A stretch of DNA of 64,000 bases from Candidatus Bathyarchaeia archaeon (GCA_049515895.1 JBEKTQ010000023.1:1-64000); one strand, 5' to 3'. Shown: positions 11,311 to 32,282, counted from the stretch's first letter. Numbers and translations: made by a program. Notes: generated from the sequence alone by a model not told the origin.

Positions 11311-11387
11311 GGGCCGGTAGTTCAGCTGGTATGAACGCTTGACTTGCACTCAAGAGGTCGGGGGTTCAAATCCCCCCCGGTCCACCA
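11311..11387 (+). tRNA. tRNA-Ala(UGC), intronless, encoded CCA
   Basis: Cloverleaf GGGCCGG/CCGGTCC with G3:U70 Ala identity pair, anticodon arm CTTGA-CTTGCAC-TCAAG, T-arm GGGGG-TTCAAAT-CCCCC. Confidence 0.96.
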
Positions 11388-11433
11388 AAAAACCTTTATT
11401 CTCCCAAAACTACTCATTTTCTGGTGATTTAAC

Positions 11434-11667
11434 TTGGAAGTGGAGGTTAAGGGTGTCGACGAGCAGGGACGCATCATATTACCGAAGGTCTGGCGTGAAA
11501 AATACCTCAAGAACAAGAAGGCTATCGTCTCAGCCAAAGGCGACACCATCGAAATCAAGCCTTATTCCGCGGTTGACCTCACCGAATACTTCGATAAAAT
11601 GGACGTAGACTTAAAGGCAGACCTCGCAGATTGGCACAAAGTCCGCAAAGAACTAAGAGGCAAATGA
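11434..11667 (+). CDS. AbrB/MazE-family antitoxin
   Basis: VDEQGRIILPKVWRE swapped-hairpin signature; directly upstream of a PIN gene. Confidence 0.85.
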   Translation: MEVEVKGVDEQGRIILPKVWREKYLKNKKAIVSAKGDTIEIKPYSAVDLTEYFDKMDVDLKADLADWHKVRKELRGK

Positions 11668-11668
11668 A

Positions 11669-12094
11669 GTGTCCCAAGCCTACGTCGACGCGAACGTGTT
11701 CATTTATGCTTTTCTTAAAACTAAAAGGCAACTGCAACCAAACGAGTTAGAAATAAAGCAAGCAGCCAAAAATATTGTTACCAGAATCAGCAAAGGAGAA
11801 AAAGTAATCACATCCGTTGTCCACTTTAGCGAAGTCTGCAACGTTTTAGAAGACCACCTCCCGTCTGAAGAAGCGATTCTATTAGAAAAGGGGTTGCTGT
11901 ATCGAGAAAACGTTTCAATCTGTGAAGTAGCCCAAGAGGATTACATTAAAGCCGTATCCATAGCGGAAGACCATAATGTGGGCGTTAACGATGCATTGGC
12001 TTACGTACTCATGAAAGAACAAGCCATACAGGCAATCTACTCTTTTGACAAAGACTTCGATGCATTTACTGATATCCGCCGAATAATTGAGTAA
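11669..12094 (+). CDS. vapC: VapC-type PIN-domain toxin
   Basis: YVDANVFIY, E at SEV, VNDAL, IYSFDKDFD acidic catalytic residues. Confidence 0.9.
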   Translation: MSQAYVDANVFIYAFLKTKRQLQPNELEIKQAAKNIVTRISKGEKVITSVVHFSEVCNVLEDHLPSEEAILLEKGLLYRENVSICEVAQEDYIKAVSIAEDHNVGVNDALAYVLMKEQAIQAIYSFDKDFDAFTDIRRIIE

Positions 12095-12120
12095 AGAAAT
12101 CTTTCAAGACCGATATTTGA

Positions 12121-12188
12121 GTAATCCAGTCGGTTGAACGCTTGACTTGCACTCAAGAGGTCGGGGGTTCAAATCCCCCGGTCCATCA
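12121..12188 (+). repeat. Partial tRNA-Ala duplicate (attR-like)
   Basis: 12135-12185 identical to tRNA 11332-11384 except 2 C missing in the C-run; degenerate 5' part GTAATCCAGTCGGT. Confidence 0.9.
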
Positions 12189-12266
12189 AAAAGCACGCCT
12201 TTACACGTCAACTCTCCGCCTAGCCCCCGCTCCCAAACGTGAATTTTGAATAGTCGGCGCCAACAG

Positions 12267-12761
12267 TTATTTTATTTTGAATTCGAGGTTAAGCATTTCA
12301 CCTTTCTTGAAGCCCATCGTATTATAGAACTGCAACAAATCCCAATCGTTCCAGTTGGCTAAAGTGTAAATTACATTTACACCCTCTACCTTCGCTTTTC
12401 CCGTGTCCATCGTTTCAGTTCCTTCTTCACAGCCACTTCGCCTAAAAATGTCGATCAACGCCAAAAACATTGTTCTGCCTATGCCGCTGCGTTGGTACGT
12501 TGGATCAACTGCCAAAGTGTCAATCCACCCAACACAATCGGGCACACCAAATTCCCATCCGCTCACGTAGCCCAATATGAAACCTACCACTTTCCCCTCG
12601 AGTTCGGCAACTAAAGCAGGACGCGGAAAAATGCCTGAATACGCTATTTTTCTTTTCCAAAAAGCTCGCCTTTCCTTTCCAAGTATTCTCTCATCGATCC
12701 CGACTATAGCGTCAAGGTCACTCTCGTCCAAAGCCCTAATCTTCACCTTTTCAAGAGCCAT
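12267..12761 (-). CDS. GNAT family N-acetyltransferase
   Basis: LVAELEGKVVGF, LAVDPTYQRSGIGR motif A, FYNTMGF. Confidence 0.88.
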   Translation of the reverse strand: MALEKVKIRALDESDLDAIVGIDERILGKERRAFWKRKIAYSGIFPRPALVAELEGKVVGFILGYVSGWEFGVPDCVGWIDTLAVDPTYQRSGIGRTMFLALIDIFRRSGCEEGTETMDTGKAKVEGVNVIYTLANWNDWDLLQFYNTMGFKKGEMLNLEFKIK

Positions 12762-13024
12762 CGAAAAATCGCCAATTAACAATTACGGCCATTTGAGTTA
12801 AATTCTTTTGCCTCAAAATGATGCTCTTACCGAGAGAGAGCGGCGCTATATCCCATCCTCAAAAAAGCGTTACTACCCGGCTAACTTAGAAGGAGGGAGT
12901 CTCCTCAATCAAGCTGCACGTGCTCTTACAGTGCTGAAAATTTCTTTTCTCAACTCTTCAGCGGACAATCCCTGTTTTATCCTGTTCAATTGTTCCGCAA
13001 CTACAAAAAAAGAAAGAAGAAAAA

Positions 13025-13435
13025 TCAGAGTGCTCGCATTCGATTGTTCCTTGGGTTATGTTCAACTTCGGCTAGTCCCAGTGCTTCTAAGATTGGCGGT
13101 ATATAGTTTGCAAATCGACCGCGTAAGCCCTTTTTGAGGCCGTACCATCCTCCCACAGGGTTTTTCGGTGACCTACCCCAGGCTTCAACGGTTCCTTCCT
13201 CAGCTGGCTTCTGTTCATCCGCACTGCCAAGCGGCATCCAATCTCCTTTAGCCTTCAACATCTTATGCAGATCGTCAATACAACGAAGTTGATATCTAAG
13301 TTCTGACTTGCCAACCCACACAACGACTACTGGCGGGTCAGCAGCCTCATCTTTGTAGGCCTTGAACTCAGAAGTTCCGGGCGGAGTTTTCAGCATCCAA
13401 GGATCATCTTTTGTTCCTTTTCCTTTAGTTGGCAA
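13025..13435 (-). CDS. Conserved hypothetical protein (DUF6855-like)
   Basis: GTKDDPW.LKTPPG, LGSADEQK, NPVGGWYGLKKGLRGRF. Confidence 0.7.
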   Translation of the reverse strand: MPTKGKGTKDDPWMLKTPPGTSEFKAYKDEAADPPVVVVWVGKSELRYQLRCIDDLHKMLKAKGDWMPLGSADEQKPAEEGTVEAWGRSPKNPVGGWYGLKKGLRGRFANYIPPILEALGLAEVEHNPRNNRMRAL

Positions 13436-13613
13436 AAAATCACCTGATAAAAGAATTGATTAAAGCGAATTTCAGCTTTTCGGTTATGTTTGAATGACCG
13501 CAATTTGAGAAAGCCCGCAGCAGAAGGTTAGAAGGTCAACAGTCGCCCAGGGGCTCCAAGTCCCAGCGGACACCAAGGGTCTTGAAACTAAAGTACAGAA
13601 GATAAAACCAACG

Positions 13614-13674
13614 AAAAAGGAGGGATATGCGGGTGGCATCTCCACTCAGAGCGAGGTTCAAATCCCCCGGTCCA
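13614..13674 (+). repeat. attR-like site: conserved arm plus tRNA-Ala 3' end
   Basis: GGGATATGCGGGTGGCATCTCCACTCAGAGC + GGTTCAAATCCCCCGGTCCA; arm near-identical to 19796-19856. Confidence 0.85.
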
Positions 13675-13715
13675 TTAGAATAACTCCCGGTCATTTTGGT
13701 GACGCTTGGACTGAA

Positions 13716-13820
13716 TTACTTTCTTTTTCTGAATAGCTTGTTGTCACCGAAGTCACAGACGAATTCAAAGCCCGCCTCAATGAGTTGCCAAGCTTCTTGT
13801 TCGGTGAGAGCTACCTTGGC
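13716..13820 (-). pseudogene. C-terminal remnant of a tyrosine integrase
   Basis: Hand-translated AKVALTEQEAWQLIEAGFEFVCDFGDNKLFRKRK*, resembling the C-terminus of Bathyarchaeia site-specific integrases; ends about 40 bp from an att-like site. Confidence 0.7.
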
Positions 13821-13821
13821 A

Positions 13822-14003
13822 CCAAGGCCTTCCGCGGATCGACTCGCATAGAGATAGTCTTTTTGATATTTTATTTTGTTATTTTATATGTTCTGATGAT
13901 AAGGTAAACCGAGAAGGCCTTTCCTGTTATACCCGCCAGATTTTGGAAGACCTTAAGCACGCCGAGATCAACGTACATTGCGAGGGCAAAGGCTGTCGCC
14001 GCA
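13822..14003 (+). repeat. Palindromic repeat copy A (13822-13954) plus truncated start of another copy (13969-14003)
   Basis: CAAGGCCTTCC...ATTTTATATGTTCTGATGATAAGGTAAA...TTTTGGAAGACCTT, then CAACGTACATTGCGAGGGCAAAGG. Confidence 0.85.
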
Positions 14004-14025
14004 GTTTAAGCCCAAAATAAAATAG

Positions 14026-14313
14026 TTACTCATAATGAATAACATTTTGGGGCCTACGATGAATCTTGTGATCTTTAGTCGGCGCAGTATTTTTTGCTAT
14101 AAGCATTGCTGAAATTACGGCATCTGTATAATCATCCATTTCGTTCTGAGGCCAAAAGTCAGCTGATTCAAACAATCTATCTTGTGACTGCAATGCGCCT
14201 TGTGCGAGAAACCCGATAAGCTTTGTAGCGTTATCTTGAGTAATCCCGCGAATTATTAATTGTCCAGTTTGCTTTTTTTGCAATTTTGTTTTGCTCATCC
14301 TTATCACTTTCAA
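14026..14313 (-). CDS. Hypothetical protein
   Basis: 95-aa ORF between repeat copies; no recognised motif. Confidence 0.5.
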   Translation of the reverse strand: MKVIRMSKTKLQKKQTGQLIIRGITQDNATKLIGFLAQGALQSQDRLFESADFWPQNEMDDYTDAVISAMLIAKNTAPTKDHKIHRRPQNVIHYE

Positions 14314-14412
14314 GACTGATGCTCGACTTATTCTTTTGTACTTATACCCACTTTAGTTTAAAAAATAGCACTTATATGCACCGCAAAAAATTAGAACGCT
14401 CAAAAGGCTGTT

Positions 14413-14566
14413 CAATGTGCATTGCGGGGGCAAAGGCCTGTCGCGAAACGGGCGCCATAGGATAAGCCAACCCCAAGATTATTTATTGCATTTTATATGT
14501 TCTGGTGATAAGATAAATCATAAAGACCTTCTTCCCTCTATGAGGTAAATTTTTGGAAGCCCTTGG
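14413..14566 (+). repeat. Palindromic repeat copy B
   Basis: CAATGTGCATTG..GGCAAAGGCC..CATAG..TTTTATATGTTCTGGTGATAAGATAAAT..CTATG..TTTTGGAAGCCCTTGG. Confidence 0.9.
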
Positions 14567-14573
14567 TAGCGGT

Positions 14574-14873
14574 TTAGCGCATGCGAATGCTCTTAAAGGC
14601 GTGTTTGTGGGATTTGAGTACTACGGAGATTATGGTGCTTTGGACGCCTTTGATTTTCATGATTTTCTTATGCAAGACGTTGCGGAACTCTTCTATGCTC
14701 GAAGCCGAAACTATGGAAACAATGTCAAATTCGCCTTTAACGTCATAAATCTCTTCGATATTTTCAACCTTTTCGAGGGCATCTATGACTTGCGCTTTCT
14801 GAGGCGGATCAACAAAAATGTTAACTGAGGCCTCAAACCGACCTTGAATATTACTGGACTCCATATTGGTCAT
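14574..14873 (-). CDS. Lrp/AsnC ligand-binding (RAM) domain protein
   Basis: IEEIYDVKGEFDIV...IMKIKGVQST. Confidence 0.8.
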   Translation of the reverse strand: MTNMESSNIQGRFEASVNIFVDPPQKAQVIDALEKVENIEEIYDVKGEFDIVSIVSASSIEEFRNVLHKKIMKIKGVQSTIISVVLKSHKHAFKSIRMR

Positions 14874-15171
14874 TAAAAACAGTTAAGCGGGTCAGGCAGC
14901 TTTTAGGCATTTTTGAGAACTGAGGCGGGCTATTTTGCAAAGCGGAGCGGGCTAAAAGGCTTATCAATCGATAGCAAGAATTATAAAATTCCAGAAGCAT
15001 CGATGTCGGTTCTTCCAAGTCTTTGAGGGCTTTGGATTAATGTCAAAAGTTAAGGGATTGAACGTAAGCTCTGCATTTTTGACACGTGTCATAGGAATTG
15101 ACAAATTAGTAAAGTGTATTTCGCAACAACACTTATTTCCAGTTTGGCTGCACTCACCAATTGGATGTGCC

Positions 15172-15321
15172 ATGCCTAAGAGAATTAGAGCAGTTACATT
15201 CGTCATGTTACCTTTTGCCGTTTTCGCATGGGTGATTGGATGGACCATGTGTTTAGCAGGCGAAAAAAAGGTAACCCGGCAAAACAAAAAATCCCTCACA
15301 GTACATATTGTTCAAAATTGA
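15172..15321 (+). CDS. Small membrane protein (49 aa)
   Basis: MPKRIRAVTFVMLPFAVFAWVIGW single TM helix. Confidence 0.4.
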   Translation: MPKRIRAVTFVMLPFAVFAWVIGWTMCLAGEKKVTRQNKKSLTVHIVQN

Positions 15322-15521
15322 AGTTGTACCACGCGCTGTGCAGGTTTAAAGCTGACAGTTTAGCTGAAGGCTTGAATAGTCTCTTCGCCCGCGCTCAAAA
15401 TCAAAACTTCAGTTATGGCGCTTTCCCTCCATAGAATTGGGCTTTCAGACAAAACTAGTCTTACGTTAATTCATAAACTCTTTATATTACTACTAATTCT
15501 AATTTTGGTTAGCTGTTCGCT

Positions 15522-15827
15522 ATGAATCGATCTAAGCTTGAGCGATACACTATTAGACGATCTAAGCTAGAAATGTACCTTGACCTTCTCAAAGTTTTAG
15601 CTCAGCGCGATCCGCTGAAGCTCACCCATATTATGCATATGACTAACCTTAATTGCAGCGTGTCGAAAAAGTACCTTGACTTCTTGACTCTGCAGGGGCT
15701 GGTTGAAGAGAAGATCATTGGAAGAGAAAGAATAGTCTATGCGATCACCCAGCGTGGCGTGACAGTGCTTAAGCAGCTCAGAGAACTCAAAGAAGTGCTC
15801 CCCATCGTTGAAGAAACAGAAAACTGA
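15522..15827 (+). CDS. Winged-helix transcriptional regulator (ArnR1/HTH_45-like)
   Basis: RRSKLEMYLDLLKVL, THIM...NLN, YLDFL..QGLV, YAITQRG. Confidence 0.85.
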   Translation: MNRSKLERYTIRRSKLEMYLDLLKVLAQRDPLKLTHIMHMTNLNCSVSKKYLDFLTLQGLVEEKIIGRERIVYAITQRGVTVLKQLRELKEVLPIVEETEN

Positions 15828-15951
15828 GCAGCGCACGCGCTCCTCTTTTTGATAAATATGAATTTCAAATTCATAAATACTATAAGTAGCCTCGATAAAT
15901 ATTTGTCATAAACACGTTTCTACACAACTAACTTGGAGGTGGGAACGAAGA

Positions 15952-16479
15952 ATGAGCGAAGTTATTCTGGAAAAGTCAAACAATGCAAAAAGGAAAACCT
16001 GTTTAATTGGACACCCAGACACTACTCGAACACATACTCATTGGCCCGTGGCTTTTTCTTATCCAGAGGATTTAACAAATGCCTACCTGTTGGAAAACAA
16101 AAAGTCCGCGGTTTTGAAGAGACTTGAGCATGCTCATGAAAAGCTGAAGGACGCTCGCGAAGAGATTAATGAGGCTGTTTTGGCGGCACTAGAAATGAAG
16201 GAAGCTCGCGACGATATCGCGGACCAGATGACAGCCGCAATAGTGGCGCGAGGCGCTATCAGAAATGCCGAGATTACACTGAGTCAAGCTCAAACAAAGA
16301 TAGAACACCTCAATTTTGAGCACAGAAACGTGGACTCTAAACAAGCAAAGGAGGAAAAAATGGAATTACCGAAAAAAAACTTGAGCATTACTGCGGATTT
16401 TGTTATCGTGAAGGGTGTGTCTCTTGAAGAGAGACGTATAGAAGCGGAAAAACCGTTATACCTAGCAAGATATGAATAA
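15952..16479 (+). CDS. Hypothetical coiled-coil protein
   Basis: RBS GGAGG; heptad-rich central region. Confidence 0.55.
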   Translation: MSEVILEKSNNAKRKTCLIGHPDTTRTHTHWPVAFSYPEDLTNAYLLENKKSAVLKRLEHAHEKLKDAREEINEAVLAALEMKEARDDIADQMTAAIVARGAIRNAEITLSQAQTKIEHLNFEHRNVDSKQAKEEKMELPKKNLSITADFVIVKGVSLEERRIEAEKPLYLARYE

Positions 16480-16789
16480 TCAGGTAACACGAGCAGGTCT
16501 ATGCGTAACACCCTAATTTTCACTACAGATGCCACGCATTTGTTTTCTTCGCGGTATTTTCCCTCTTTTTTTATCAGCGCGCGGTTCCTCAGCCTAAATC
16601 CAGGAGATGCGTTAGAGGGGCGAATGGAAACAGCCGGAAACGAGCGCGTAGCCACAGTCAGAAAGGTCTGAAAGTTCCAAAAACCGCCCGAAAATCCGCA
16701 AGGGCAGAAATGTTGTCCCAAACCAAGGCTAGGCCAGTACGCTTGGCGCCCCGAAAAATTGCCGGAAAAAAAATCGGGCAAAATCGATA

Positions 16790-16938
16790 CAATGTACATT
16801 GCGAGCAAAGGTCCTCCGAAAACTGGTGGGTATAGAGTGGGTAAGTTTGAATTTATTTATTTGATTTTTAATGTTCTGATGATTAGATAATTTGTGGAAG
16901 GCCTTTTCCTCTATGGGCTCCAGACTTTGAAAGGCCTT
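16790..16938 (+). repeat. Palindromic repeat copy C
   Basis: CAATGTACATTG..CAAAGGTCCTCC..TTTTTAATGTTCTGATGATTAGATAAT..CTATG..TTTGAAAGGCCTT. Confidence 0.88.
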
Positions 16939-17083
16939 ACGAACGAGTTACAGGGGCAAAGTTCCAATCCTTATTTGATAATACTGTTAATTCTGTTTAA
17001 CTTAAAAAGAAAAACCCCTATATCATAAATAAGCAGATGAGCTAAGTGCATGAAGCGGAAAGACTTCAAAGCTCAACCAAAGA

Positions 17084-17359
17084 ATGCAAGAGGCATTGGA
17101 GAGAAAGCAATTGGCATCATTAAAATGGACAACCGTTGACCCAGATGGAAGCCTCTTTTCAAGGGGAAAACACGATTACTATGCAATTCTCGTCCGAGGA
17201 ATCCCCGAAGAACATCCTAAAGACTGTATTGTAGAACTCTACGTGACGGATAAAGAAATGACAATTTTTGAGATTAAGGTCAGCGCAGTTAATGAAAAAA
17301 TTGAGCTATTATCTATACCTTACGATAAAGCAAGGGGACACCTATTATTGCCTTTGTGA
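17084..17359 (+). CDS. Hypothetical protein
   Basis: 91-aa ATG ORF between repeat copies C and D. Confidence 0.55.
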   Translation: MQEALERKQLASLKWTTVDPDGSLFSRGKHDYYAILVRGIPEEHPKDCIVELYVTDKEMTIFEIKVSAVNEKIELLSIPYDKARGHLLLPL

Positions 17360-17572
17360 CAGTTGAAATCTATTTCACAAACGCCGTACTCTGATTGCGG
17401 CAAAGACCTTGAAGAATTCAAGCGGGGAGGTTAGAGTTTGCGGAACTGCGTGAAGACGGCGAACCATCCAACAGTTCCCTCTGAACCTGCCCAATCAAGC
17501 AAACGATTTACTTTTTTTAAACCTTATGCATTCAAGATACATAAAAATCGCCGAAGCGCAAACTTGCCCGGT

Positions 17573-17726
17573 CATTGTACATTGTTTGGGGCCAAAGGCC
17601 TGTCTCCGATTGAAGCCTTTAGGATAAGTCAAATCAAAATTTATTTTATTCATTTTTAATGTTCTGATGGCAAGGTAAATTCAGGCAGGCCCCATTCTAT
17701 GGGGGTAAATTTTTGGCAGACCTTGG
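17573..17726 (+). repeat. Palindromic repeat copy D
   Basis: CATTGTACATTG..CAAAGGCC..TTTTTAATGTTCTGATGGCAAGGTAAAT..CTATGGGGGTAAATTTTTGGCAGACCTTGG. Confidence 0.9.
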
Positions 17727-17768
17727 TACGGTCGTATGCCTCTTTCACTGCAATATTCCCATGCATAT

Positions 17769-17804
17769 TACGCACTTAAACGCATACACTTATAAGTGCG
17801 TATG
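17769..17804. promoter_or_regulatory. Palindromic operator/promoter upstream of the RHH pseudogene
   Basis: TACGCACTTA...CACTTATAAGTGCGTA with a perfect 12-bp palindrome CACTTATAAGTG overlapping TTATAA. Confidence 0.5.
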
Positions 17805-17934
17805 TACATGTATGCTAATGTGAATAAGTGAAATCGAAGGGACAAAAGATGAAACAAATAAGAACCGAATACAAAAGTTGGCTACTCACTTATTTCAAAA
17901 ACATGTAACCAGCAAAAAAAACAGGTGACTAAAA

Positions 17935-18077
17935 TTGGACCGCATCAACGTTGACATTTCAGACGAAATAGACAAACAGCTCAGACTAAAAACCGTAGAA
18001 AGATTCGGAGGCAAAAAGGCGACTTATCCAAAGCTGTCCAAGAAGCGGTAAAAACATGGATCGACAAAAAACAATGA
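17935..18077 (+). pseudogene. Ribbon-helix-helix (CopG-like) gene with 1-nt frameshift
   Basis: MDRINVDISDEIDKQLRLKTVERFGGK / GDLSKAVQEAVKTWIDKKQ*; adding one A in GGCAAAAAGG restores the frame. Confidence 0.7.
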
Positions 18078-18234
18078 AGCCGTCCCTCTTCAAATCCCAA
18101 TAACTATCTTATAAGAAGCCTATGCAAAAGGCCAGGGAAGCCAGTTAGCCTGGAACTCCTCGCATGAGGATTATGGGCAATCTAACTGCAAAACCCCTTT
18201 ATAGAAAAGTTTCAATCTGCTGCGTTATCCTATG

Positions 18235-18389
18235 CAATGTACATTGTGTTGGGCAAAGGTCTTCCACGAATTGGCAGCCATAGTATAAGTCAACCTACGT
18301 TTTGTTTATTGTATTTTATATGTTCTGATGATAAGGTAAAACCTGAAAAGCCTTTTCCTCTATGGGGGTAAAATTTTGGAAGACCTTGG
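18235..18389 (+). repeat. Palindromic repeat copy E (best preserved)
   Basis: CAATGTACATTG; AAGGTCTTCCA..CCATAG inverted to CTATGG..TGGAAGACCTT; core TTTTATATGTTCTGATGATAAGGTAAAA. Confidence 0.92.
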
Positions 18390-18472
18390 CTGGCCTTCCA
18401 GATGCTAGAAAATTTGGGCAGCCAAAACCATTTTAACCATCTTATCTTTGATATTAATCAGAGGTTGTCAAC

Positions 18473-18811
18473 TTGGCTAGCTGCAATGCAGAAACTGCGC
18501 AGAAAATCCTCAGCACAGTTCCGTACGCCCAGGGTTTCCACTTCTTCATGCCGGACGGCCATTATACAGGCGAAACAGCAATGTCTCTCTGCTCTTTCCT
18601 AAGAGACCTGGGAAGGTTAGACGGGCAATCAATCAAGTTCCATTTCGAGCGCACCGACTTTCAAAAGTGGATAAGAACCACAATCGGGGATGAGGAACTT
18701 GCCCGTAGAATCGACAAATTGGGTAAAAAATTGCCAGAAGAAAGTTTGCCGCAACAGTTAACTGACATAGTGCAGAAACGAATTTCTGAACTGCAGTTGA
18801 CAGATACTTGA
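18473..18811 (+). CDS. DUF5752-like protein
   Basis: GFHFF...YTGETA.SL..F, SIKFHFER.DFQKWIRTTIGDEELA. Confidence 0.75.
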   Translation: MASCNAETAQKILSTVPYAQGFHFFMPDGHYTGETAMSLCSFLRDLGRLDGQSIKFHFERTDFQKWIRTTIGDEELARRIDKLGKKLPEESLPQQLTDIVQKRISELQLTDT

Positions 18812-19011
18812 GAACAAAAAGCCTGTGCCTATTTTGGAGGGGTTAAACAAAACATGCCAACCTGAGGATTCAGCTTTTCGAACAAACTCCGAGGTTCAAG
18901 AATAATCTGTTGACAGATGCAGGGTTTGCTGAGGCTCTGGAATATTTTTCCTTAGGAGAAAAGAACAAAATGCAAATGTCCTACACGAAAAAGGAATAGA
19001 CGTGGAGAGTT

Positions 19012-19686: not shown

Positions 19687-19795
19687 TTTGACATCCTCTT
19701 TTTATGATTTATGAGAACTAAGTGTAGAGAGAGTAACTTAAATCTTACTAATTAATATACAATATTTTCTATCTAGTATTCTAAAAATACCAAAG

Positions 19796-19856
19796 AAAAA
19801 AGGGGATTTGCGGGTGACATCTCCACTCAGAGCAGGGTTCAAATCCCCCCGATCCA
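19796..19856 (+). repeat. attR-like site: conserved arm plus tRNA-Ala 3' end
   Basis: GGGATTTGCGGGTGACATCTCCACTCAGAGC + GGTTCAAATCCCCCCGATCCA. Confidence 0.85.
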
Positions 19857-20081
19857 CTCATCCATGCATTCCGTGTTTTGTCTCAAGAATTCGCAAATTG
19901 CGGAACATAACAAGCTTGAATTAGGGTTTTGCTGAGGCTCTGGAAGGAAGAAGAGAAACAGATCTGATTGCAGCCGATAGCGAATGGAGACTAAAGCCCT
20001 CTGAGGTCTAGGTCTTTAATCATTGCTTTGAAGGATTAAAAAAATAAAAAAGGAAGGAGGTCTTTTGCTTTTGGTCTTGGT

Positions 20082-23113: not shown

Positions 23114-23212
23114 CATAAAATTTTTTACTTCGACAATCCTTATGTTTAGACTTGGAGATTGGTTACTTTGAGGAAAAAAAGAAACACGTTAGTTTTGGAG
23201 AAGCGTTCGTAA

Positions 23213-23527: not shown

Positions 23528-23615
23528 TTTCTCAGAGCACACCCAAGTGGTTTTCGTTCTTTTTTGAAAAGCACACGATAATTCTCTAAAAGAAGAAAAT
23601 AAAAAGAGAGTTTCT

Positions 23616-24896: not shown

Positions 24897-25006
24897 TTTT
24901 CATCGATAAGCAATTGGCAGAATCTCTTTAAAACCTACATTTTTTAAAACCCGTTAAAAACCCTTTAACAAGCTTTCAAAACCCTTTAATCATTAAGCTA
25001 AAGGAA

Positions 25007-25066
25007 CTGAGGATAAGTAAAACCGGAAAGCCTTTCCCTCTATATCCCCAAATTTTCTGAAGACCA
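25007..25066 (+). repeat. Partial (right half) palindromic repeat copy F
   Basis: CTGAGGATAAGTAAAACCGGAAAGCCTTTCCCTCTAT..AATTTTCTGAAGACC aligns to the right half of copy E. Confidence 0.65.
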
Positions 25067-25166
25067 TGCGCGTACCCAAATAGGTTGTGCCTTATGCGGT
25101 CATAGGAAACTCGCTGTATCACGAAGGTGAGAACCCTTTTATAGCCAACTTTTCAGAGTCATACTG

Positions 25167-25469
25167 GTGATAATTTTGTCGAATTTTATTGTTCTAGGAA
25201 ACTGGACTGAACAGGGCATAAAAAATGTCGCAGAGGTTCCGGAAAGAGTCAAGCAAAGCAGAAAAATGATTGAAAATGCCGGCGGAAAAATGCAGTTCTT
25301 CACAACCATGGGGAAATATGATTTTGTGCTTCTAGTTGAAATTCCAAAGGATGAAGACATGGCGGCAATAGCTTTGTGCTTAGGCAGCATGGGAAACATC
25401 CGCACAATAACTATGAAAGCTTGGACAGAGGCAGAAGCAACCAAACTGTTCACGACACCTCACCCATAG
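25167..25469 (+). CDS. GYD domain protein
   Basis: WTEQGIKNV, TMGKYDFV, GNIRT.TMKA. Confidence 0.85.
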   Translation: MIILSNFIVLGNWTEQGIKNVAEVPERVKQSRKMIENAGGKMQFFTTMGKYDFVLLVEIPKDEDMAAIALCLGSMGNIRTITMKAWTEAEATKLFTTPHP

Positions 25470-25598
25470 CTTTACTTTAACCCTTTTCAACCTCTAACTT
25501 TTTTCTTCGCTAAAGCCATCTTTTCATTTTGTTTCAAATTAGCCACAGAACATGATGGTTTATCAGTTAGCAAGAGAAAATAATCTAGTGGGTTTTTC

Positions 25599-26510
25599 AT
25601 GATAACAATTATCGGGGCTGGAAAAGTGGGCAGCGAAGCAGCCTACAATATTTTACAAGACAGAATAAGCGACGTGGTCTTAATTGACTTGTATCAAGAA
25701 CTCGCGCAGGGCGAAGCATTGGACATGATGCAGGCAGCGCCAGCAATCGAGTTTGACGGAAAAATCCACGGCACAAACGACTTCAAAGAAATGGGAGGAA
25801 GCGAACTAGTCATCGTGGTTGCGGGACAAGGCCGAAAGCCAGACATGACCAGAATCGACCTCATGAACAACAACGCTAAAGTCATCCGCTCCATAGTGAA
25901 GGAAGTCGCGAAATATGCACCAGACTGCAAGCTTATGATAGTCACCAACCCAGTAGACATTATGACCTTCATCGCACGCAAAGAATCAGGCTTGCCGCCT
26001 AACCACGTGTTTGGTATGGGCAACATTCTGGATACACTCAGGTTCAGAAGCTACATTGCACAAGAACTGAACGTGTCCAGAGAGGACACATGCGCCTTAG
26101 TTATAGGCGAACATGGAGACAGCATGGTTCCATTAGTGGAATACGCGTGTGTCTCGGGAATCCCCATAACCACACTGCTCACTAAAGAGCAAATTGCGAA
26201 GATAGTCCACCAGACGATAAATTCAGGCGCAGACGTCATCAAACTCAAGGGTAGCACAATCTATGCTCCAGCAGCAGTCATCGCCATGATGGCAGACTCC
26301 GTTCTTAAAGGCAGAAACCGGGTCATGAGCGTGTCAACATGCCCAAGCGGCGAATACGGCTGTAGCAATTATTCAATAGGCGTACCAGTGGTTCTTGGAA
26401 AAAATGGAGTGGAAAGGATAATAGAACTCGAACTCGCATCCGAATCAAAACAGCGCTTCGAAAAATCCATAGAAACGATAAAAACTGCCATTACACAGCT
26501 ACAGTTCTAG
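25599..26510 (+). CDS. mdh: Malate dehydrogenase (LDH-like)
   Basis: IIGAGKVG, RKPDMTRIDL, VTNPVD, LDTLRF, GEHGD. Confidence 0.9.
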   Translation: MITIIGAGKVGSEAAYNILQDRISDVVLIDLYQELAQGEALDMMQAAPAIEFDGKIHGTNDFKEMGGSELVIVVAGQGRKPDMTRIDLMNNNAKVIRSIVKEVAKYAPDCKLMIVTNPVDIMTFIARKESGLPPNHVFGMGNILDTLRFRSYIAQELNVSREDTCALVIGEHGDSMVPLVEYACVSGIPITTLLTKEQIAKIVHQTINSGADVIKLKGSTIYAPAAVIAMMADSVLKGRNRVMSVSTCPSGEYGCSNYSIGVPVVLGKNGVERIIELELASESKQRFEKSIETIKTAITQLQF

Positions 26511-26674
26511 TCGTTCAGTGATAATCTTTTCATAGACTTGGCGGTTCGCAGCAGTTCTTCTTCTTTGTCATCTGAATCACTTATTGTGCCAGGAGAGAGA
26601 CCGTTTCTTGCGCGCTTGCGTAGAGAAATAAAGGTGTTTCAACTCTAATTATTGGAGAATACCGATTCTAAAAG

Positions 26675-27412
26675 GTGCAGATAATGAGTAAAACTACAGG
26701 AGACGATTTCCAAATTGAGACAAAGTACACCCGCCACAATATCCTCGGTGGCAACTTGGACTGGAGAAACAAACCAGAAACATACAAAAGCTACCCAGGG
26801 AGCAAAACCGTTCAATTACCCGACCAGCTAAAAGAGGCCACCCTTAACTTTGCTGAAGTTCTCACGAGACGCAAGAGCATTCGAGCCTTCTCAACACAGC
26901 CTTTAACGAGAGCTGAGTTGGGTTTCCTTCTTTGGGCATCGACCGGCATCCAAAGAATAGAACACGGTTACGAGTTCCGAACCGCTCCGTCGGCTGGCGC
27001 ATTATACCCCATCGAGACATACATAGCCGCTAACAACGTGGAAAATGTGGATTGTGGCATTTACCATTACAACATAAAGAATCATCAGTTAGAAGAATTA
27101 AAGACCGGAAGTTTTGGCGCAGACTTAGCCCACGCTGCTTTGGACCAAGAGATGTGTGCAACCGCATCTGCCGTGTTCATCTGGACCGCTGTATTTAGGA
27201 GGTCAAAGTGGAAATACAAGCAGAGAGCCTACAGATACATCTATTTGGATGCAGGACACGTAGCCGAGAACTTGGCGTTGGCAACGGCAAGCATCAATTG
27301 TGGCTCCTGCCAAGTCGGGGCTTTCTTTGACGATGAAATTAACTCGATAGTGGTTATAGATGGAACGGAAGAAAGCGCAATTTGCCTTAGCGTAGTCGGC
27401 CATTCCAAATAA
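26675..27412 (+). CDS. SagB/ThcOx-type nitroreductase family protein
   Basis: RRKSIRAF, RTAPSAGALYPIE, YRYIYLDAGH. Confidence 0.9.
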   Translation: MQIMSKTTGDDFQIETKYTRHNILGGNLDWRNKPETYKSYPGSKTVQLPDQLKEATLNFAEVLTRRKSIRAFSTQPLTRAELGFLLWASTGIQRIEHGYEFRTAPSAGALYPIETYIAANNVENVDCGIYHYNIKNHQLEELKTGSFGADLAHAALDQEMCATASAVFIWTAVFRRSKWKYKQRAYRYIYLDAGHVAENLALATASINCGSCQVGAFFDDEINSIVVIDGTEESAICLSVVGHSK

Positions 27413-27951
27413 CAGCTGGATTCTCAAGTTTCCAAATTAGCATGATGCCTTCTAGAAAGACCTGGATCTTAAATCGGCTAAAGCCTTCCTGCTTTTCTAG
27501 GTCGTCGGCAGAGTAGTAATGGCAGATTAGGAGGAGGAAGTCGCTGCCGTGGTTGAGCCAGGCTCGGACGTCTTCGGCTGGGGCAAATAACTTGCATTCA
27601 AAACAGTCTCCTGCAAAACACACTGAACATCTTAAGGTAATGCCAAGTTTCTCAAGAATAACTCCAGTCCTGCAGCTGTCATAGACCTAAACAAGCCTAC
27701 AAATTCCGCTCACTCGCGTCATCTGGGTACTTTTTAGCTAATTCGCTCATGTCAGCCTCAAACAACAGCACAAACCTGACCTCGCCAAGACCCACGACGA
27801 AAACAGACCGCAAATCCTTAGCTTGCCACAAAATCTCGTTAATGTTGAACTTGCCAAGGCGTTCTCTGAGCTTAGCTTCGTATTCCTGGGCTTGACGCTG
27901 CAAACGTTCAAACCCTTCCCGATCAAACTCTTCCTTTTCAATTTTACTCAC
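27387..27951 (-). pseudogene. Decayed viral tail-assembly-chaperone (G/GT-type) gene pair
   Basis: GTG start 27951 with GGAGG RBS; internal stop and frameshifts; frame ending YLPQPKTSEPGSTTAATSSS* overlaps second frame LFAPAEDVRAWL...; family assignment inferred. Confidence 0.5.
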
Positions 27952-28042
27952 TATAATGTCCCTCCTCTGAATTCTTGTTATCATAATTATGATGGTTTTA
28001 AAAAATGCAAAAAACAATTGGAATTGGAAAATATGCCATTAG

Positions 28043-28888
28043 TTAATTGGCAGTATTGATATATAGCAAAGCTCCGTTAGGCTGGAAATCAGCGAAGAAT
28101 ACGCCATGACCAGTGTTGCCGCTTTGATATCCGCCGGTAAGTAGCATTGTCATGCCTTGATAAGATCCATACTTTTCCCACTGAATGGATATGCTTAATG
28201 TGTTTATGTTTGGGGGGGTTCCCGTCTTGTTCTGGTATGCTTCAATTGCACCTTTGTCGAACGAGTTTAGACCCAAGGAGTCAATCTGCTTTAGACTATC
28301 CGTATCTGTTTGCTGTGAAGGATAAATTAGAGATGATGGTCTTCCACCCCAAGTGGAAACTGATGCATGGTAAGGGTAGCCGTTGGAGGCAGCGAACCTG
28401 AAGGCTAAATTGGACGTTTGTTGATAGAGCACCACTTCTATGCTTCCCTGTCCAAAAGGATCTAATGATATACCTTCAACCACCACTTTGCTTGGGTGCT
28501 CTAGCACGAGAAATGCGAAGGCTGGCGAATTTTCTACGCTTTGTATTATCTTGGTTAATGAAGCATTCAAAATGTTGGAATATGAAAGGGTAACTCCGGA
28601 TTGCTGAGGTTCAAAGGACGGTGGGTAACCTGCATTCCAGAGTACAATTCCTTCAACGGCTGTGAAACTCACTGCGAAAATCATGACTGCGACTATCAAA
28701 TACTTGAAAATTCGCCTAACAGTGCCGCGAGAAACTAGCCAAACTAACCCGCCGATCACAGTTACACTGAGCACAAGAATCTCTATCCAAGAGTTGCTCA
28801 GGACAACAACCGAGGTGAACAGACCTATGGCTATCAGAATTCCTATAATGATGCTCTTACTGATTTCTTTTTTGTCGGTTGAAGTCAT
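28043..28888 (-). CDS. Hypothetical membrane protein
   Basis: Three N-terminal TM helices then an extracellular domain. Confidence 0.7.
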   Translation of the reverse strand: MTSTDKKEISKSIIIGILIAIGLFTSVVVLSNSWIEILVLSVTVIGGLVWLVSRGTVRRIFKYLIVAVMIFAVSFTAVEGIVLWNAGYPPSFEPQQSGVTLSYSNILNASLTKIIQSVENSPAFAFLVLEHPSKVVVEGISLDPFGQGSIEVVLYQQTSNLAFRFAASNGYPYHASVSTWGGRPSSLIYPSQQTDTDSLKQIDSLGLNSFDKGAIEAYQNKTGTPPNINTLSISIQWEKYGSYQGMTMLLTGGYQSGNTGHGVFFADFQPNGALLYINTAN

Positions 28889-28974
28889 TACTCAAGCCCC
28901 TAACGTGTTTATTGAAATGTGCTCGAATATAATGCAACACTTTTGTACAAATGTACAACTTTCAAATATCGTGG

Positions 28975-29427
28975 TCAAACCAGTTTTTGTTTCCATATTC
29001 GAACACATTCATAAATTGTAACTAGAATGGCTGTTAATCCAATGAGAGTTGCGAGAATATTGCTCGGATTAAGCTGGAAAGAACCTTCAACCCAAACTGA
29101 AATAACATATAGCAGGAAAAGGGTTGAGAAAAATGCCGCATAAAAAACATACCGAGGCAAAAGCAAGGAGCCAAACTTTACAAGTTGCGTCAATACGCCA
29201 ACCTTAACCTCTTTTGTCAAAACATAACCTTCGGTTGTTTTTTCGATTAAATGCAGACTCTCAAGTTTCTCCAAGTGGTATGTGGCAAGACCTGGGCTTG
29301 AGAAATCCAGTTTTCTCTGCACTTCCCTAGCACCCATCGCACGGCCATTTCGCACTAAGCAAAGGTAGACAAGCAAGGTGTTTCCTCTCAATTCACTAAA
29401 AGCCTTTAAGTCCTCTTCTTTGCTCAA
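28975..29427 (-). CDS. Membrane-anchored winged-HTH regulator
   Basis: LRGNTL.VY..L, GAREVQRKL.FSSP.LA.YHLEKL, two C-terminal TMs. Confidence 0.8.
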   Translation of the reverse strand: MSKEEDLKAFSELRGNTLLVYLCLVRNGRAMGAREVQRKLDFSSPGLATYHLEKLESLHLIEKTTEGYVLTKEVKVGVLTQLVKFGSLLLPRYVFYAAFFSTLFLLYVISVWVEGSFQLNPSNILATLIGLTAILVTIYECVRIWKQKLV

Positions 29428-29642
29428 CCAGTAGTTCTCCGTTTTACCATCAAGGAATAGTGTCCTTTGCTAATCTTTTTTTATGGTCACTTATCGTTTT
29501 GGAATGGCATCGTTCTCCTGTTTTTAATAGGCGATTGATATTTAATATATCGTTTTTGAACAATTGTACAAAACCATTGTACTTTCGATTTATTCGATTT
29601 TCTTTCTCGTTGGTTTAAGAGAAATAGGAAAAAAGCGAATTC

Positions 29643-29790
29643 TTAGAAGTTGCCGACTGCGCTTAGGATGCCTTTGGCGGTGAAGCTGTTGCTTGTTGCG
29701 CTTTTCTGATCTCATTTTAGATCTAACTGTGCGATAACCACGTTGCTGAACGTGTAATTCAGGTTGCCTGCACACGCGGGGACGCTGCTA
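29643..29790 (-). pseudogene. Gene fragment, probable viral tail-tube C-terminus (copy 1)
   Basis: NYTFSNVVIAQLDLK*DQKSATSNSFTAKGILSAVGNF*; homologous to 32035-32098. Confidence 0.5.
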
Positions 29791-29877
29791 AAGTCGTTTT
29801 GCCTGTTAACTTGTTGACTATCCGAGGAACTTAGCTTAGATAAGTGGATATTTGATTGAATGAAATAAACTACAAAA

Positions 29878-30966
29878 TTACGGGGAATCTGTCCATACTG
29901 GCGTTACGGTATAGTTGGAAACAAATTCTGGCGAATAAATTGTCATCCCGATTGACGCCGAGTTTGAGCTGCTGTAGGAATCGAAGCCGTATCCGCTATT
30001 AATTGTTGGAAGTTTTGGTGGATTTGTGTAAGTTGATGAATCATAGGTAAACGTTCCCCCTTCCGCTGGAACGGTCATGTTAATTTCTAATTTACCCTCT
30101 GCGTTGTAAGCTACAATGTGCAGCCCCGCGTTATACGCTGCCCCTTCTCCAGTGTTGGTCACTGACCCAACGATGAAAAGGCTGTTTTCAAAACTTACCC
30201 CGTACTGAGTGGTAGCTGGATACTCCTTCATATTCAAGGAAGCAACAAGATTAGCCGTTGATAGGCTTGCTATCATGGCGTTGAGATTTTCCACTTGATT
30301 TTCTAGATAGGCTACTTGGCTGCTCAACGGCTGGTTTTGACTGAGAACAGTTGGAGCGTATGACCAGCAGACAGGTGTTATAGTCCAATTGTCGACGGCG
30401 CCTTCGTGGAATATGTTTATACCGACATTCGTGGTTTGTCCGCTGTCCAAAATTTGAAGCACCAGGCTGCTGTTCCCATAATTTTTTGAGACAAAAGCGT
30501 TAGTTGCGTTGTCACTTCCAAAAATTGTACCAGTGAAGGGAACGGTCAGGTTTACTTCTAATGTGCCATTCGCGGCGTAGGCAACCACCTGCAACCCCGC
30601 GTTAACCGCGTAGCCTTTTCCCGTGTTAGTGACTGAACCTTCGATCCAAAGGTAATTATATGGAACGGGAGTGGGCACTAAGCCGCCCATGTAACTGCTA
30701 TTAGCGCCTATCATTTCATGTGTTTCCAATGAGGTCACAAGATTTGCCAACGTCAAATTCTCCACTATCCCGGTGAGGTTGGCTAGTTGACCTTTTAGGC
30801 TTAAAATTTGAGCTTTTAAAGTCGATGTTTGATCTGAAACTTGAGATTGATTGTTTACTTGTTTGGAATTTCGCTGATTTACTATGTTAAAGTAAACTAT
30901 TCCAGCGATTACACTGAGGAAGAGCGCAACGACTATCAACGCATATGCTTTTCTCCTACTGAGCAT
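29878..30966 (-). CDS. Membrane-anchored protein with two tandem Ig-like (FxLYD-like) domains
   Basis: Duplicated ANLV.SL..GSVTNTG.G.A.NAGL..VAY.A.G.LE.N.TVP..TPV.W units. Confidence 0.75.
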   Translation of the reverse strand: MLSRRKAYALIVVALFLSVIAGIVYFNIVNQRNSKQVNNQSQVSDQTSTLKAQILSLKGQLANLTGIVENLTLANLVTSLETHEMIGANSSYMGGLVPTPVPYNYLWIEGSVTNTGKGYAVNAGLQVVAYAANGTLEVNLTVPFTGTIFGSDNATNAFVSKNYGNSSLVLQILDSGQTTNVGINIFHEGAVDNWTITPVCWSYAPTVLSQNQPLSSQVAYLENQVENLNAMIASLSTANLVASLNMKEYPATTQYGVSFENSLFIVGSVTNTGEGAAYNAGLHIVAYNAEGKLEINMTVPAEGGTFTYDSSTYTNPPKLPTINSGYGFDSYSSSNSASIGMTIYSPEFVSNYTVTPVWTDSP

Positions 30967-31094
30967 ACTTGGTCAATGGATTTACTCACGATAAAAGTGT
31001 TTTTGTATAGATCTCTTGACTAAACCGCGATTATTCAGTCAACATTTATTGACCAAGTCGGAATAATCGCCGACTGCGATTAATATAGGCGCCC

Positions 31095-31961
31095 TCAAAA
31101 AAATAGATTAAAAATAGGGGCTTGACTTGAGCGTTTGTGCCGTTTTAAGTAAACTAACAAAACAACACTCACCCCAACGACCACAACTGCTCCTAAAATA
31201 ACAGCAACAGTTGCAGTTGGGAAAGGCTCTGGCTTCGTAATGACGAAAGTAACTGTCTTGGGTGTTGCTGTGTTGCAATAAGTATCGTTAGCGTAAATAG
31301 TTAGGGTATGTGAGCCATTAGTTAATCCGGTTAGAGTTGTATTTCCAACAATTGTCACGTTTGCTTGCCCATCTAAACTGTATCCAATCCATTGAGATGG
31401 TTTTGAGAGGGTGAAATTTAACGATATGTTACTTGATAAAAAGGTTCCGTTTTCAAGTGATAAGTATGAAATCTGAGGTGGAGAAGGGGTAGGATAAGGT
31501 GAAGGGGAAGGCGTTGGCGGAGGAGATTCAGTGGGTGATTGGGAGACGATGACATACAATGGCAACGGACCCAAGCCGTACGTATCGTTTAAGGAGTCGG
31601 TTACTTCACATGAAATATCGTATGTTCCAGGTGCCGATTCGACGAAATCGAATGTTGATGAGGTAGCTCCCGGAAACGCAAGCAAAGGTCCGAGAGCTGG
31701 AAGATTGTAAGACACCCCTGGCTTCCAAGTAGTCCACAACTGAGTATACCACTGATAAGTGTACGGCGGATTCCCGCCACCAACCGTCACAGTTATTTCA
31801 ACGTGTTGATTCACAAGCGCTGTGGTGGATGTCTGCTCTACATCTATGGATGTGGGTCCTCTTGCCACGACGGCATGAACGCCGGTAATAATTGAAGCTG
31901 AGAGCCCAAAAACAAGAACTGTAAGCAGAACAATTCCTTTTTGCATCATCATGCCTTGCAC
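31095..31961 (-). CDS. Secreted Ig/PKD-like cell-surface protein
   Basis: Signal peptide, GG.PPYTYQWY, Pro/Ser linker, YSLDGQAN..G.HTLTIYAND, C-terminal TM. Confidence 0.75.
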   Translation of the reverse strand: MQGMMMQKGIVLLTVLVFGLSASIITGVHAVVARGPTSIDVEQTSTTALVNQHVEITVTVGGGNPPYTYQWYTQLWTTWKPGVSYNLPALGPLLAFPGATSSTFDFVESAPGTYDISCEVTDSLNDTYGLGPLPLYVIVSQSPTESPPPTPSPSPYPTPSPPQISYLSLENGTFLSSNISLNFTLSKPSQWIGYSLDGQANVTIVGNTTLTGLTNGSHTLTIYANDTYCNTATPKTVTFVITKPEPFPTATVAVILGAVVVVGVSVVLLVYLKRHKRSSQAPIFNLFF

Positions 31962-32034
31962 TATGTACAGTCAAAGTGACTTTTAGTTCTACTCAAGGAA
32001 CAGAACGTTCCAGAGCTGGAACACTTGTGCTGAA

Positions 32035-32098
32035 TGCGCTTTTTTGATCCCATTTTAAATCCAGCTGCGTGATGGCTACGTTGCTTAAGGTATACTTC
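32035..32098 (-). pseudogene. Gene fragment, probable viral tail-tube C-terminus (copy 2)
   Basis: KYTLSNVAITQLDLKWDQKSA aligns gaplessly with copy 1. Confidence 0.5.
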
Positions 32099-32133
32099 CG
32101 TGAGCGAAGGCTTATGGTTTGAACCCAACAAAC

Positions 32134-32152
32134 GTTCAAATCCCCCGGTTCA
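32134..32152 (+). repeat. Short tRNA-Ala 3'-end copy (most distal att-like site)
   Basis: GTTCAAATCCCCCGGTTCA versus GTTCAAATCCCCCGGTCCA at 12167 and 13656. Confidence 0.6.
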
Positions 32153-32282
32153 TAGTGCGGTTTGAACCAGTTTGGCTTCAAGTTCCTTCGGACCTTTAAG
32201 GTATTGCAATGGGGCCCGGCGGGATACGGCTTTACGACCGAGAAGAGAAAATGCTTTAAGCGGAGGGAAGTAATTTGGTGTT

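Follow-up and report, generated by a model that had tools for sequence, protein, structure and literature searches.

A probable accretion island at a tRNA-Ala gene of a Bathyarchaeia archaeon and the conserved arm found at its junctions

We analysed a stretch of DNA from Candidatus Bathyarchaeia archaeon (GCA_049515895.1 JBEKTQ010000023.1:1-64000), hereafter the window, which comprises the first 64 kb of contig C23 in a genome of 3.18 Mb and 53 contigs. At 11311-11387 (plus strand) it carries an intact tRNA-Ala(TGC) gene (found by ARAGORN; 70.7 bits with the Rfam tRNA model), the anchor of an island in which five partial copies of the tRNA 3' part follow downstream at 12.1, 13.6, 19.8, 23.1 and 32.1 kb, all in the same orientation. 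The bounds of the units between them are thus direct repeats of the 3' part of the tRNA, as in a tandem array. The copies at 13.6 and 19.8 kb, and weakly that at 23.1 kb, are preceded by a shared sequence outside the tRNA, which we call the arm; arms of this kind are missing at the 12.1- and 32.1-kb copies. An earlier note, made from the sequence of this stretch alone, had described the five copies and the three arms, and both observations were upheld by shuffle controls and direct reading. The stretch is present in peat and wetland metagenome runs, and its junctions are covered by independent metagenome contigs from four runs.

The first copy (12135-12185, plus strand), which has no arm, is a 50-nt pseudo-tRNA corresponding to tRNA positions 22-73 minus two C, and represents a secondary insertion site. 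Its nucleotides 12135-12179 are identical to tRNA positions 22-66 (45/45 nt), direct reading continues the copy to 12185 past the loss of the two C, and Rfam recognises a partial tRNA at 12122-12179 (35.4 bits). The 20-mer GGTTCAAATCCCCCGGTCCA, with up to three mismatches, occurs three times in the 64-kb window (12166, 13655 and 32133), compared with a shuffle expectation of 0.01; three matches were reached in none of 100 shuffles. The copies at 19835-19856 and 23093-23113, both read directly, retain 16 and 15 exact nt, respectively. The 13.6-kb copy resembles copy 1 and not tRNA-Ala itself: the two have 21 nt in common (GGTTCAAATCCCCCGGTCCAT), including the CC deletion and a T after CCA. The tail at 19.8 kb is more diverged than that at 13.6 kb, for which a variant with a CC insertion at 13663 was found in one contig of run X2. 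The tails track the allele of the host (CCAGTCC in G016, G001 and G466; CCGGTCC in G000 and G003).

Two further tRNA-like sequences were encountered. A "tRNA-Phe" with an intron of 1998 nt (21048-23117), predicted by ARAGORN when introns were allowed, is an artefact in which the 23.1-kb tail was used as the 3' half. On contig C19 of the same genome (96110-96129, minus strand), 300 nt from the contig end, there is an exact 20-nt Ala tail with five C, preceded by a motif like that found at 32.1 kb (arm2, described below); it may represent a further junction of the Ala type, or else the opposite side of a break in the assembly.

The segments of the island were characterized by a Pfam scan and with a hidden Markov model (HMM) of an integrase family built from six paralogs of the genome itself. 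Segment A (11388-12134, plus strand), directly adjoining the tRNA gene, is a toxin-antitoxin (TA) module composed of an AbrB/MraZ-like gene (11434-11667) and a PIN-domain gene (11669-12094). The cargo of segment B (12186-13612, minus strand) comprises a GNAT acetyltransferase (12267-12782) and a DUF6855 protein (13025-13435). Its right junction (attR; 13613-13675, plus strand) is built of an A-run, GGAGG, the arm core (13629-13645), a linker (13646-13654) and an Ala tail (13655-13675), and scores 32.3 bits with the arm profile.

Segment C (13676-19795) contains small, regulator-like genes, among them an AsnC-type regulator (14574-14873) and an HTH_45 protein (15522-15827), followed by a DUF5752 fragment (18473-18811) and a zinc-ribbon protein (19012-19686); its genes are found singly at other loci in many species. 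At its left end (13719-13820, minus strand) the 3'-terminal 34 codons of a tyrosine integrase gene of the zinc-ribbon type are preserved. The right junction of C (19796-19857, plus strand; 40.0 bits) consists of the arm core (19810-19826), a linker and a diverged Ala tail (19835-19857). Many metagenome contigs from elsewhere match the arm alone and break at 19796 and 19826.

Segment C also holds five copies of a repeat of ~140 nt (rep2; 13867-13961, 14412-14566, 16790-16945, 17573-17726 and 18230-18400), spaced 0.6-2.4 kb apart, in which a 31-nt inverted repeat encloses an AT-rich centre. Further copies are situated in the window at 25026-25074 and on contigs C2 (176788-181270) and C10 (113976-114098) of the same genome. 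On C2 four of them lie directly downstream of a tRNA-Thr gene, and one unit there (rep2, a small gene, rep2) is 77% identical to 17638-18389 of the window. Metagenome depth is several-fold higher over these repeats, which look like a shared promoter/operator region or another kind of module boundary.

Segment D is made up of a single gene (20082-22994, minus strand) for a 970-aa secreted or surface protein with a PQQ-like beta-propeller, an Ig-like domain and a C-terminal membrane anchor. Its paralogs form a large family that gives DNA-level matches on eight or more further contigs (C6, C7, C8, C11, C19, C21, C31 and C47) and whose members recur beside arms and tRNA-Ala in relatives. The segment ends in what is probably, not certainly, a degenerate arm junction with an Ala tail (23055-23114, plus strand; tail 23093-23114, 15 nt exact). 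By reading, 23070-23086 keeps 12 of the 17 core positions together with the A-run and a GGAG context; the arm profile reported no match there at E≤10.

The content of segment E (23115-32115) is core-like: DUF1844 and GYD proteins, malate dehydrogenase (mdh; 25599-26510), a nitroreductase (26675-27412) and membrane or surface proteins. At the DNA level no malate/lactate dehydrogenase gene other than mdh is detectable in the genome, and the mdh region is matched, at other loci, at ~66-71% DNA identity in 22 of the 30 relatives searched. The closing junction (32116-32152, plus strand) is of another kind, with "arm2" (GGTTTGAACCCAACAAAC, an inverted T-loop-like half-site) in front of the Ala tail (32133-32152). 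In its general form arm2 is GGTTTGAACCC..AC placed directly before the T-loop copy, the two together making an inverted repeat of T-loop-like half-sites; a flank motif, GTGCGGTTTGAACC, repeats just past the 32.1-kb copy (arm2 region 32116-32169). The same arrangement exists in G003, right after the first attR (L013, 1488-1530), and on contig C22 of the genome under study around 6971 (minus strand), downstream of tRNA-Pro. Arm2 is probably a junction that belongs to another integrase family, and segment E may have been gained either by capture through integration or by rearrangement between tails. The five segments differ in kind, with at least three types of junction.

The arm has a clear signature: an A-run, GGGG or GGAGG, 3-5 nt and GCGGGTGACATCTCCAC, and then, ~8-10 nt further on, the T-arm and acceptor 3' strand of some tRNA. 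The 31-nt arm at 13622-13652 occurs again at 19803-19833 with two mismatches (none in shuffles), within a block of 54 nt (87% identity) common to the two junctions. The linker in this block resembles the anticodon-stem and variable region of tRNA-Ala, and related linkers are present in the Ala-type arms of other species. The core contains an imperfect palindrome of 12 bp, with the halves GGTGAC and ATCTCC, and becomes more symmetric in its most frequent variants (position 5, T to A; position 8, C to T). In 74 arms, positions -12 to -9 are free of C, and no position between -12 and -2 shows a C more than once.

Within the genome itself, 16 profile matches were obtained at E<0.1, of which 14 had built the model and two were new (C2:177205 and C37:13196); relative G041 gave 29 arm matches against 0 in the reversed control. 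An exact scan of public genomes with the 17-mer yielded at least 128 loci, with 126 analysable matches. The A-run/GGGG context accompanies 75 of the 126 matches listed; the other 51 come mostly from bacterial records and look like chance. As the earlier note had anticipated, the arm abuts tRNA 3' fragments elsewhere: among the matches listed, a T-loop lies within 30 nt of the arm in 55 of the 75 copies from other metagenome-assembled genomes (MAGs) if one mismatch is allowed, and in 64 of 75 with two, and the 55 tails fall into 47 different tail classes. In our genome the arms on contigs C8, C1 and C26 have tails that match, respectively, tRNA-Cys (29 nt, 96.6%), the tRNA-Leu 3' end (23-25 nt, 100%) and a tRNA-like 3' end on C14 (24 nt). 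The arm is not confined to tRNA-Ala but flanks Cys, Leu and many other tRNA tails. It always sits on the element side of the junction and in a fixed orientation.

The distribution of the arm is narrow. The core with at most one mismatch was present in 12 of the 46 further genomes sampled from this order and in none of the 13 from the class's other orders. In the rest of the phylum it occurred in 4 of the 341 genomes sampled, on a par with the reversed control (2 matches). The arm is a signature of one Bathyarchaeia order. Among 80 titled loci, those bearing the context belong to Bathyarchaeota/Bathyarchaeia MAGs, save three that we noticed. These three (L035, L052 and L090) have canonical arms and tRNA tails in MAGs titled as bacterial (Gemmatimonadales, Sulfotelmatobacter) and are probably mis-binned Bathyarchaeia contigs. 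The 15-mer of the core had no match in the literature searched. Viral contigs gave six exact core matches, none of them with the arm context, and a viral origin of the arm was rejected on that account.

A variant arm, GCGGGAGACATC(G/A)CCAC, which lacks a T-arm tail, was also observed, in G016 (L015; relative positions 3696/3785 and 8708/8795) and at C1:31303, C22:2901 and C16:73737 of the genome under study. Both of its occurrences in G016 follow a large surface-protein gene and have a canonical arm 89 nt downstream.

Several other identities were considered for the arm and dismissed. The Shine-Dalgarno-like GGGG, a start codon and seemingly synonymous changes could suggest the N-terminus of a split integrase of the SSV (Sulfolobus spindle-shaped virus) type; this was rejected because all 11 arm-started frames are short (9-56 codons), because the junction simulated for C8 yields a frame of 67 codons that runs antisense to the integrase, and because the spacing from arm to T-loop varies and no frame is kept. 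Nor is the arm the C-terminus of an integrase on the other strand, the stop codon of the C8 integrase lying 40 nt short of the tRNA. A reading of arm and tail as a tRNA-like RNA or one half of a split tRNA was set aside as well: acceptor-like pairing exists only where the tail ends in CCCGC, and Rfam returned no match beyond tRNA. A general integrase promoter was rejected with 0 of 17 full-length integrases having the arm in the 600-800 nt upstream; such an arrangement occurs only in the cargo-free remnant of G466 (see below).

Contig C8 of the genome under study holds an intact element of 19.9 kb (C8:77110-97062; L165), which has a tRNA-Cys gene at one end, and the arm with a 32-nt direct repeat (two mismatches) of the tRNA-Cys 3' end at the other. 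Its integrase (392 aa, in an open frame of 394 codons) is intact, lies 40 nt from the tRNA-Cys gene and reads towards it, and joins a PF00589 domain to an N-terminal zinc ribbon. The cargo includes subunits of the CODH/acetyl-CoA-synthase type (Prismane/CODH, CO_dh), a heavy-metal P-type ATPase, a cation-efflux protein, an ABC transporter and regulators, with no viral or plasmid hallmark genes. A second tRNA-Cys gene is placed ~110 nt past the right end of the element. The genome encodes six full-length paralogous integrases of this family, and relatives show 8-12 matches each, many of them fragments.

In G466 the tRNA-Ala gene is separated by 636 bp from an arm with an Ala tail, after which the TA module follows. 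Starting from the tRNA gene, they comprise 49 nt, then the pseudogene of an integrase that has suffered an internal deletion (HMM positions 283-403 and 23-64), a further 62 nt and finally the arm. As read from this arrangement, the intact ancestor of the remnant would have been an element of ~1.3 kb with an integrase and the arm only. In the window the 34-codon remnant is situated 44 nt after the 13.6-kb tail and reads towards it, and a stop codon follows. It resembles the C8 integrase (63.6% identity over 33 aa by tblastn, E 3.8e-7; 21/34 residues identical by BLASTP, aligned to residues 359-392 of 392) and matches positions 363-403 of the HMM of the six paralogs (E 7.8e-7). Integrase-family fragments, either zinc-ribbon or C-terminal, also lie beside tails in G001 and G041. 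On contig C22 of G041, where arms are present, no tRNA was found in 20 kb around the nearby integrase.

The C8 element, the G466 remnant and the 34 codons in the window link the arm to the integrase, and for this reason we conclude that the arm belongs to elements of the zinc-ribbon tyrosine integrase family. It accompanies integrase-bearing elements (C8, G466), and not only small cargo units as had been proposed. The description of the segments as integrase-less holds insofar as none contains an intact integrase, but not for segment C, which retains the remnant. Because this remnant stands at its start, at least C (6.2 kb) is an eroded autonomous element, the very situation that the note had named as speaking against its own proposal. 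Elsewhere in the island no tyrosine recombinase was detected at a unit end (A, B, D and E), none of the 19 PF00589 matches (E≤1) of the whole genome lies on this contig, and none of 30 open reading frames (ORFs) scanned in the window matched recombinase or transposase families.

The order of an adenosine-kinase gene and tRNA-Ala was conserved in all six relatives compared in detail, and matches to both parts are widespread among the 40 searched. What lies downstream of the tRNA gene differs in every species examined, and arms with Ala 3' copies follow the tRNA-Ala gene in other species of the genus too. Many species of the genus share the TA module (73-91% DNA identity), the match setting in exactly where the tRNA ends, and this recurrence indicates that the module is old. 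It lies directly after tRNA-Ala in G008 and after an arm with an Ala tail in G466 and G469; the partial tRNA copy behind the module is also found in G469. In G452 and G479, where the site is unoccupied, the module is followed by a homologue of the surface-protein gene, and such a homologue stands straight after tRNA-Ala in G012 and G016; in G016 homologues of the segment D gene are also contained in arm-bounded units. In G014 a 33-kb island occupies tRNA-Ala (L017, L018; relative positions 75-32950), with a family integrase, a type I restriction-modification system, an Mrr-like nuclease and, ~130 nt inside the tRNA copy, an N-terminal fragment of a zinc-ribbon integrase.

The gene order in G452, G479, G012 and G016 implies that 12186-19826 (segments B and C, 7.6 kb) is specific to the present lineage. 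The 21 nt common to copy 1 and the 13.6-kb tail moreover indicate that B was inserted into the pseudo-tRNA and not into the tRNA. The more diverged tail at 19.8 kb fits an earlier arrival of C than of B. The stacking envisaged at first, with the newest unit next to the tRNA, is too simple for these data: the TA module beside the tRNA is common to many species, and B and C entered the pseudo-tRNA behind it. The arm junction is shared by B and C, and probably in degenerate form by D; A and E use junctions of other kinds.

We propose, with a probability of about 0.6, that the stretch is an accretion island at tRNA-Ala, formed by serial site-specific integration of one lineage-specific element family and subsequent erosion. 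In the chromosome a member of the family consists of the tRNA 3' part, ~45 nt, the zinc-ribbon integrase gene directed towards the tRNA, cargo, the arm, a linker of ~9 nt and the displaced tRNA 3' part, and the arm constitutes the element-side flank of the right junction. The arm may be a protein-binding site of the recombination machinery. The ancestral order at this locus would have been tRNA-Ala, the TA module, the 50-nt pseudo-tRNA and the gene for the large surface protein. First element C and then unit B would have integrated into the pseudo-tRNA copy, and the integrase of C would afterwards have been deleted down to its last 34 codons, while B keeps no trace of one. Decay of integrase-bearing elements was demonstrated for C and for the elements in G466 and G001. 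The integrase-less units could still be movable by the six full-length paralogous integrases.

A number of results weigh against this proposal. The integrase-family HMM finds no trace of an integrase in segments B, D and E, and among the 75 arm loci the 3' end of an integrase lies within 400 nt after the tail in just four. G014 contains eight integrase-family matches but not a single arm (≤2 mismatches), nor does its 33-kb island have one at the right junction; the arm is therefore not obligatory for the family. The reverse complement of the arm was absent from the 600-800 nt upstream of the 17 full-length integrases mentioned above. Finally, no clean excision or circle joint was present in the assembled contigs of the four runs, the joints listed being in rep2 or having sides of <30 nt.

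Material for a different view comes from G041. If the arm and the tRNA-like tail together formed a cassette recombination site, small integrase-less units (tail, gene, arm) might be moved in trans by an integrase encoded elsewhere and stack at tRNAs or at earlier tails, which we regard as rather unlikely. Contig C11 of this relative carries arm-bounded arrays (L153, L154; 4071-15902 and 35829-37796) with at least 11 co-oriented arms 0.6-1.35 kb apart and one gene per interval (cupin, DUF4184/YdjM, methyltransferase, F420H2-reductase-like, acetoacetate decarboxylase-like, hexapeptide transferase), neither a tRNA nor a PF00589 gene being present in 40 kb. Except for one after the last arm, these units show no integrase remnant at E≤0.01, which again counts against erosion and fits units that never carried an integrase. 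Likewise free of any trace of an integrase are the 0.87-kb unit beside the intact tRNA-Ala of G003 and segment B (1.5 kb), both with exact repeats of 21-24 nt, and the six full-length paralogs would be available for mobilisation in trans. One G041 unit is duplicated at 96% identity, the identity ending at the last base of the right arm, while on the left side the two arms differ at three core positions before the identity begins; homologous recombination between arms would, however, explain this duplicate too. Segment C and the elements of G001 and G466 are demonstrably eroded and once bore an integrase, contrary to the cassette view, the cassette genes occur in both orientations, and no platform integrase adjoins any array. 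No array elsewhere in another genome contained an identical unit (of 80 other family genomes, only 4 shared some part of the G041 array, and in no case did the match run from arm to arm), and no circle junction appeared in the contigs of the four runs. Trans-mobilised, integron-like cassettes are possible, and we would only tentatively entertain a true cassette system of one Bathyarchaeia order, with mostly single-gene units moved in trans by zinc-ribbon integrase elements of ~1.3 kb. If real, it would have built arrays resembling those of integrons, some of them at tRNA genes or at displaced copies of a tRNA and others not near any tRNA, and would represent an independently evolved analogue of the integron, based on mimicry of the tRNA T-arm instead of attC hairpins.

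The palindrome in the core, with the greater symmetry of its common variants, the near exclusion of C upstream of the core and the position of the G466 arm, 62 nt upstream of the integrase start and divergent from it, could also be read as those of a regulatory or terminator module, in which the A-run would be an oligo-T on the other strand and the palindrome an operator. Such a module would spread with elements or by homologous recombination, and the arrays would result from duplication and from deletion between arms. This is improbable given the fixed orientation of the arm and its distance of ~8-10 nt to a tRNA-derived tail in 55-64 of 75 copies, its constant place on the element side of the junction, and the lack of orientation bias of the cassette genes relative to it. 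That the copies are chance T-loop-like matches or assembly artefacts with no history of integration is hardly credible: the 23.1- and 32.1-kb copies are indeed short and T-loop-like strings are common in the genome, but shuffle controls contradict this idea, the junctions are found in independent metagenome contigs of four runs, and the same architecture exists in several species. Serial integration followed by erosion remains our preferred explanation of the island.

To our knowledge, next to nothing has been learned about the ways in which the abundant but uncultured Bathyarchaeia exchange genes. The 17-nt arm offers a simple, searchable marker for the ends of one family of their mobile elements; it delimits accessory DNA precisely in MAGs, exposes contigs that were binned wrongly and makes it possible to date gain and loss between species. 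The integrase genes are lost quickly while cargo and junctions persist, and the leftovers form arrays resembling those of integron cassettes. If the units can still be moved, they would point to an undescribed mechanism of gene capture in archaea.

The idea of "gene capture" by tandem integrative elements at archaeal tRNA genes reportedly goes back to She et al. in 2001. Tandem integration of tyrosine-recombinase elements in archaea is treated in the relevant parts of PMC8371274 and PMC6563490. The island agrees with such elements in the insertion by a tyrosine recombinase into the 3' part of a tRNA gene with duplication, in stacking, and in the decay of the integrase with retention of cargo. 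It differs in the highly conserved 17-nt arm, which is the same whatever tRNA is targeted, and in the many units of only 0.6-1.5 kb. In contrast to SSV-type elements, the integrase gene of the family is not split, and the C8 copy is intact while integrated; attP does not lie inside the integrase ORF, as judged from the 9-56 codons of the arm-started frames and the 67 of the simulated junction.

Cis-mobilizable elements (CIMEs) are integrase-less derivatives flanked by att sites, which take part in accretion-mobilisation with integrative elements of the conjugative (ICEs) or mobilizable (IMEs) kind in streptococci. Here, too, integrase-less units with both att sites have arisen from integrase-bearing relatives and stand in tandem at a tRNA or similar site, and a related integrase could move them. 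Segment B is of this type, keeping both att sites (copy 1 and the 13.6-kb junction, 21 nt in common) without a recombinase. Unlike CIMEs, the units belong to an archaeal lineage, show no conjugation or mobilisation genes and are often single genes.

According to Ghaly et al. (2022; PMC9668308), archaeal integrons use attC sites; tRNA is nowhere mentioned in that paper. Set beside this description, the similarity lies in short units that mostly hold one gene and form arrays, a conserved site closing each unit and many arrays having no nearby integrase (like the CALIN, clusters of attC sites lacking an integron integrase), and in a cargo of small enzymes, acetyltransferases and TA pairs. Single-gene arrays closed by the site exist in G041; in the window B alone comes close (two genes, 1.5 kb). 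The site itself is different, composed of the arm and a tRNA 3' part, and the genes lie in both orientations. Reading of the 74-arm consensus and of the tails revealed no attC architecture or GTTRRRY box, no dedicated attC model having been run, an Rfam scan of 11-33 kb at E≤1 gave tRNA-like matches only, and there is no intI-attI-Pc platform, with no integrase adjoining the arrays.

Cryptic integrated elements of Thaumarchaeota, as described in PMC6563490, are inserted in tRNA genes, measure down to 2.6 kb, lack viral and plasmid hallmarks and have the integrase as their sole conserved gene. As far as that account goes, they resemble the elements studied here in being hallmark-free islands in tRNA genes, whereas the latter have a putative minimal form of ~1.3 kb, a conserved arm and widespread loss of the integrase. 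What is new in comparison with these systems is the conserved arm across elements that target many tRNAs, the predicted minimal form of integrase plus arm, and the arrays of arm-bounded single-gene units.

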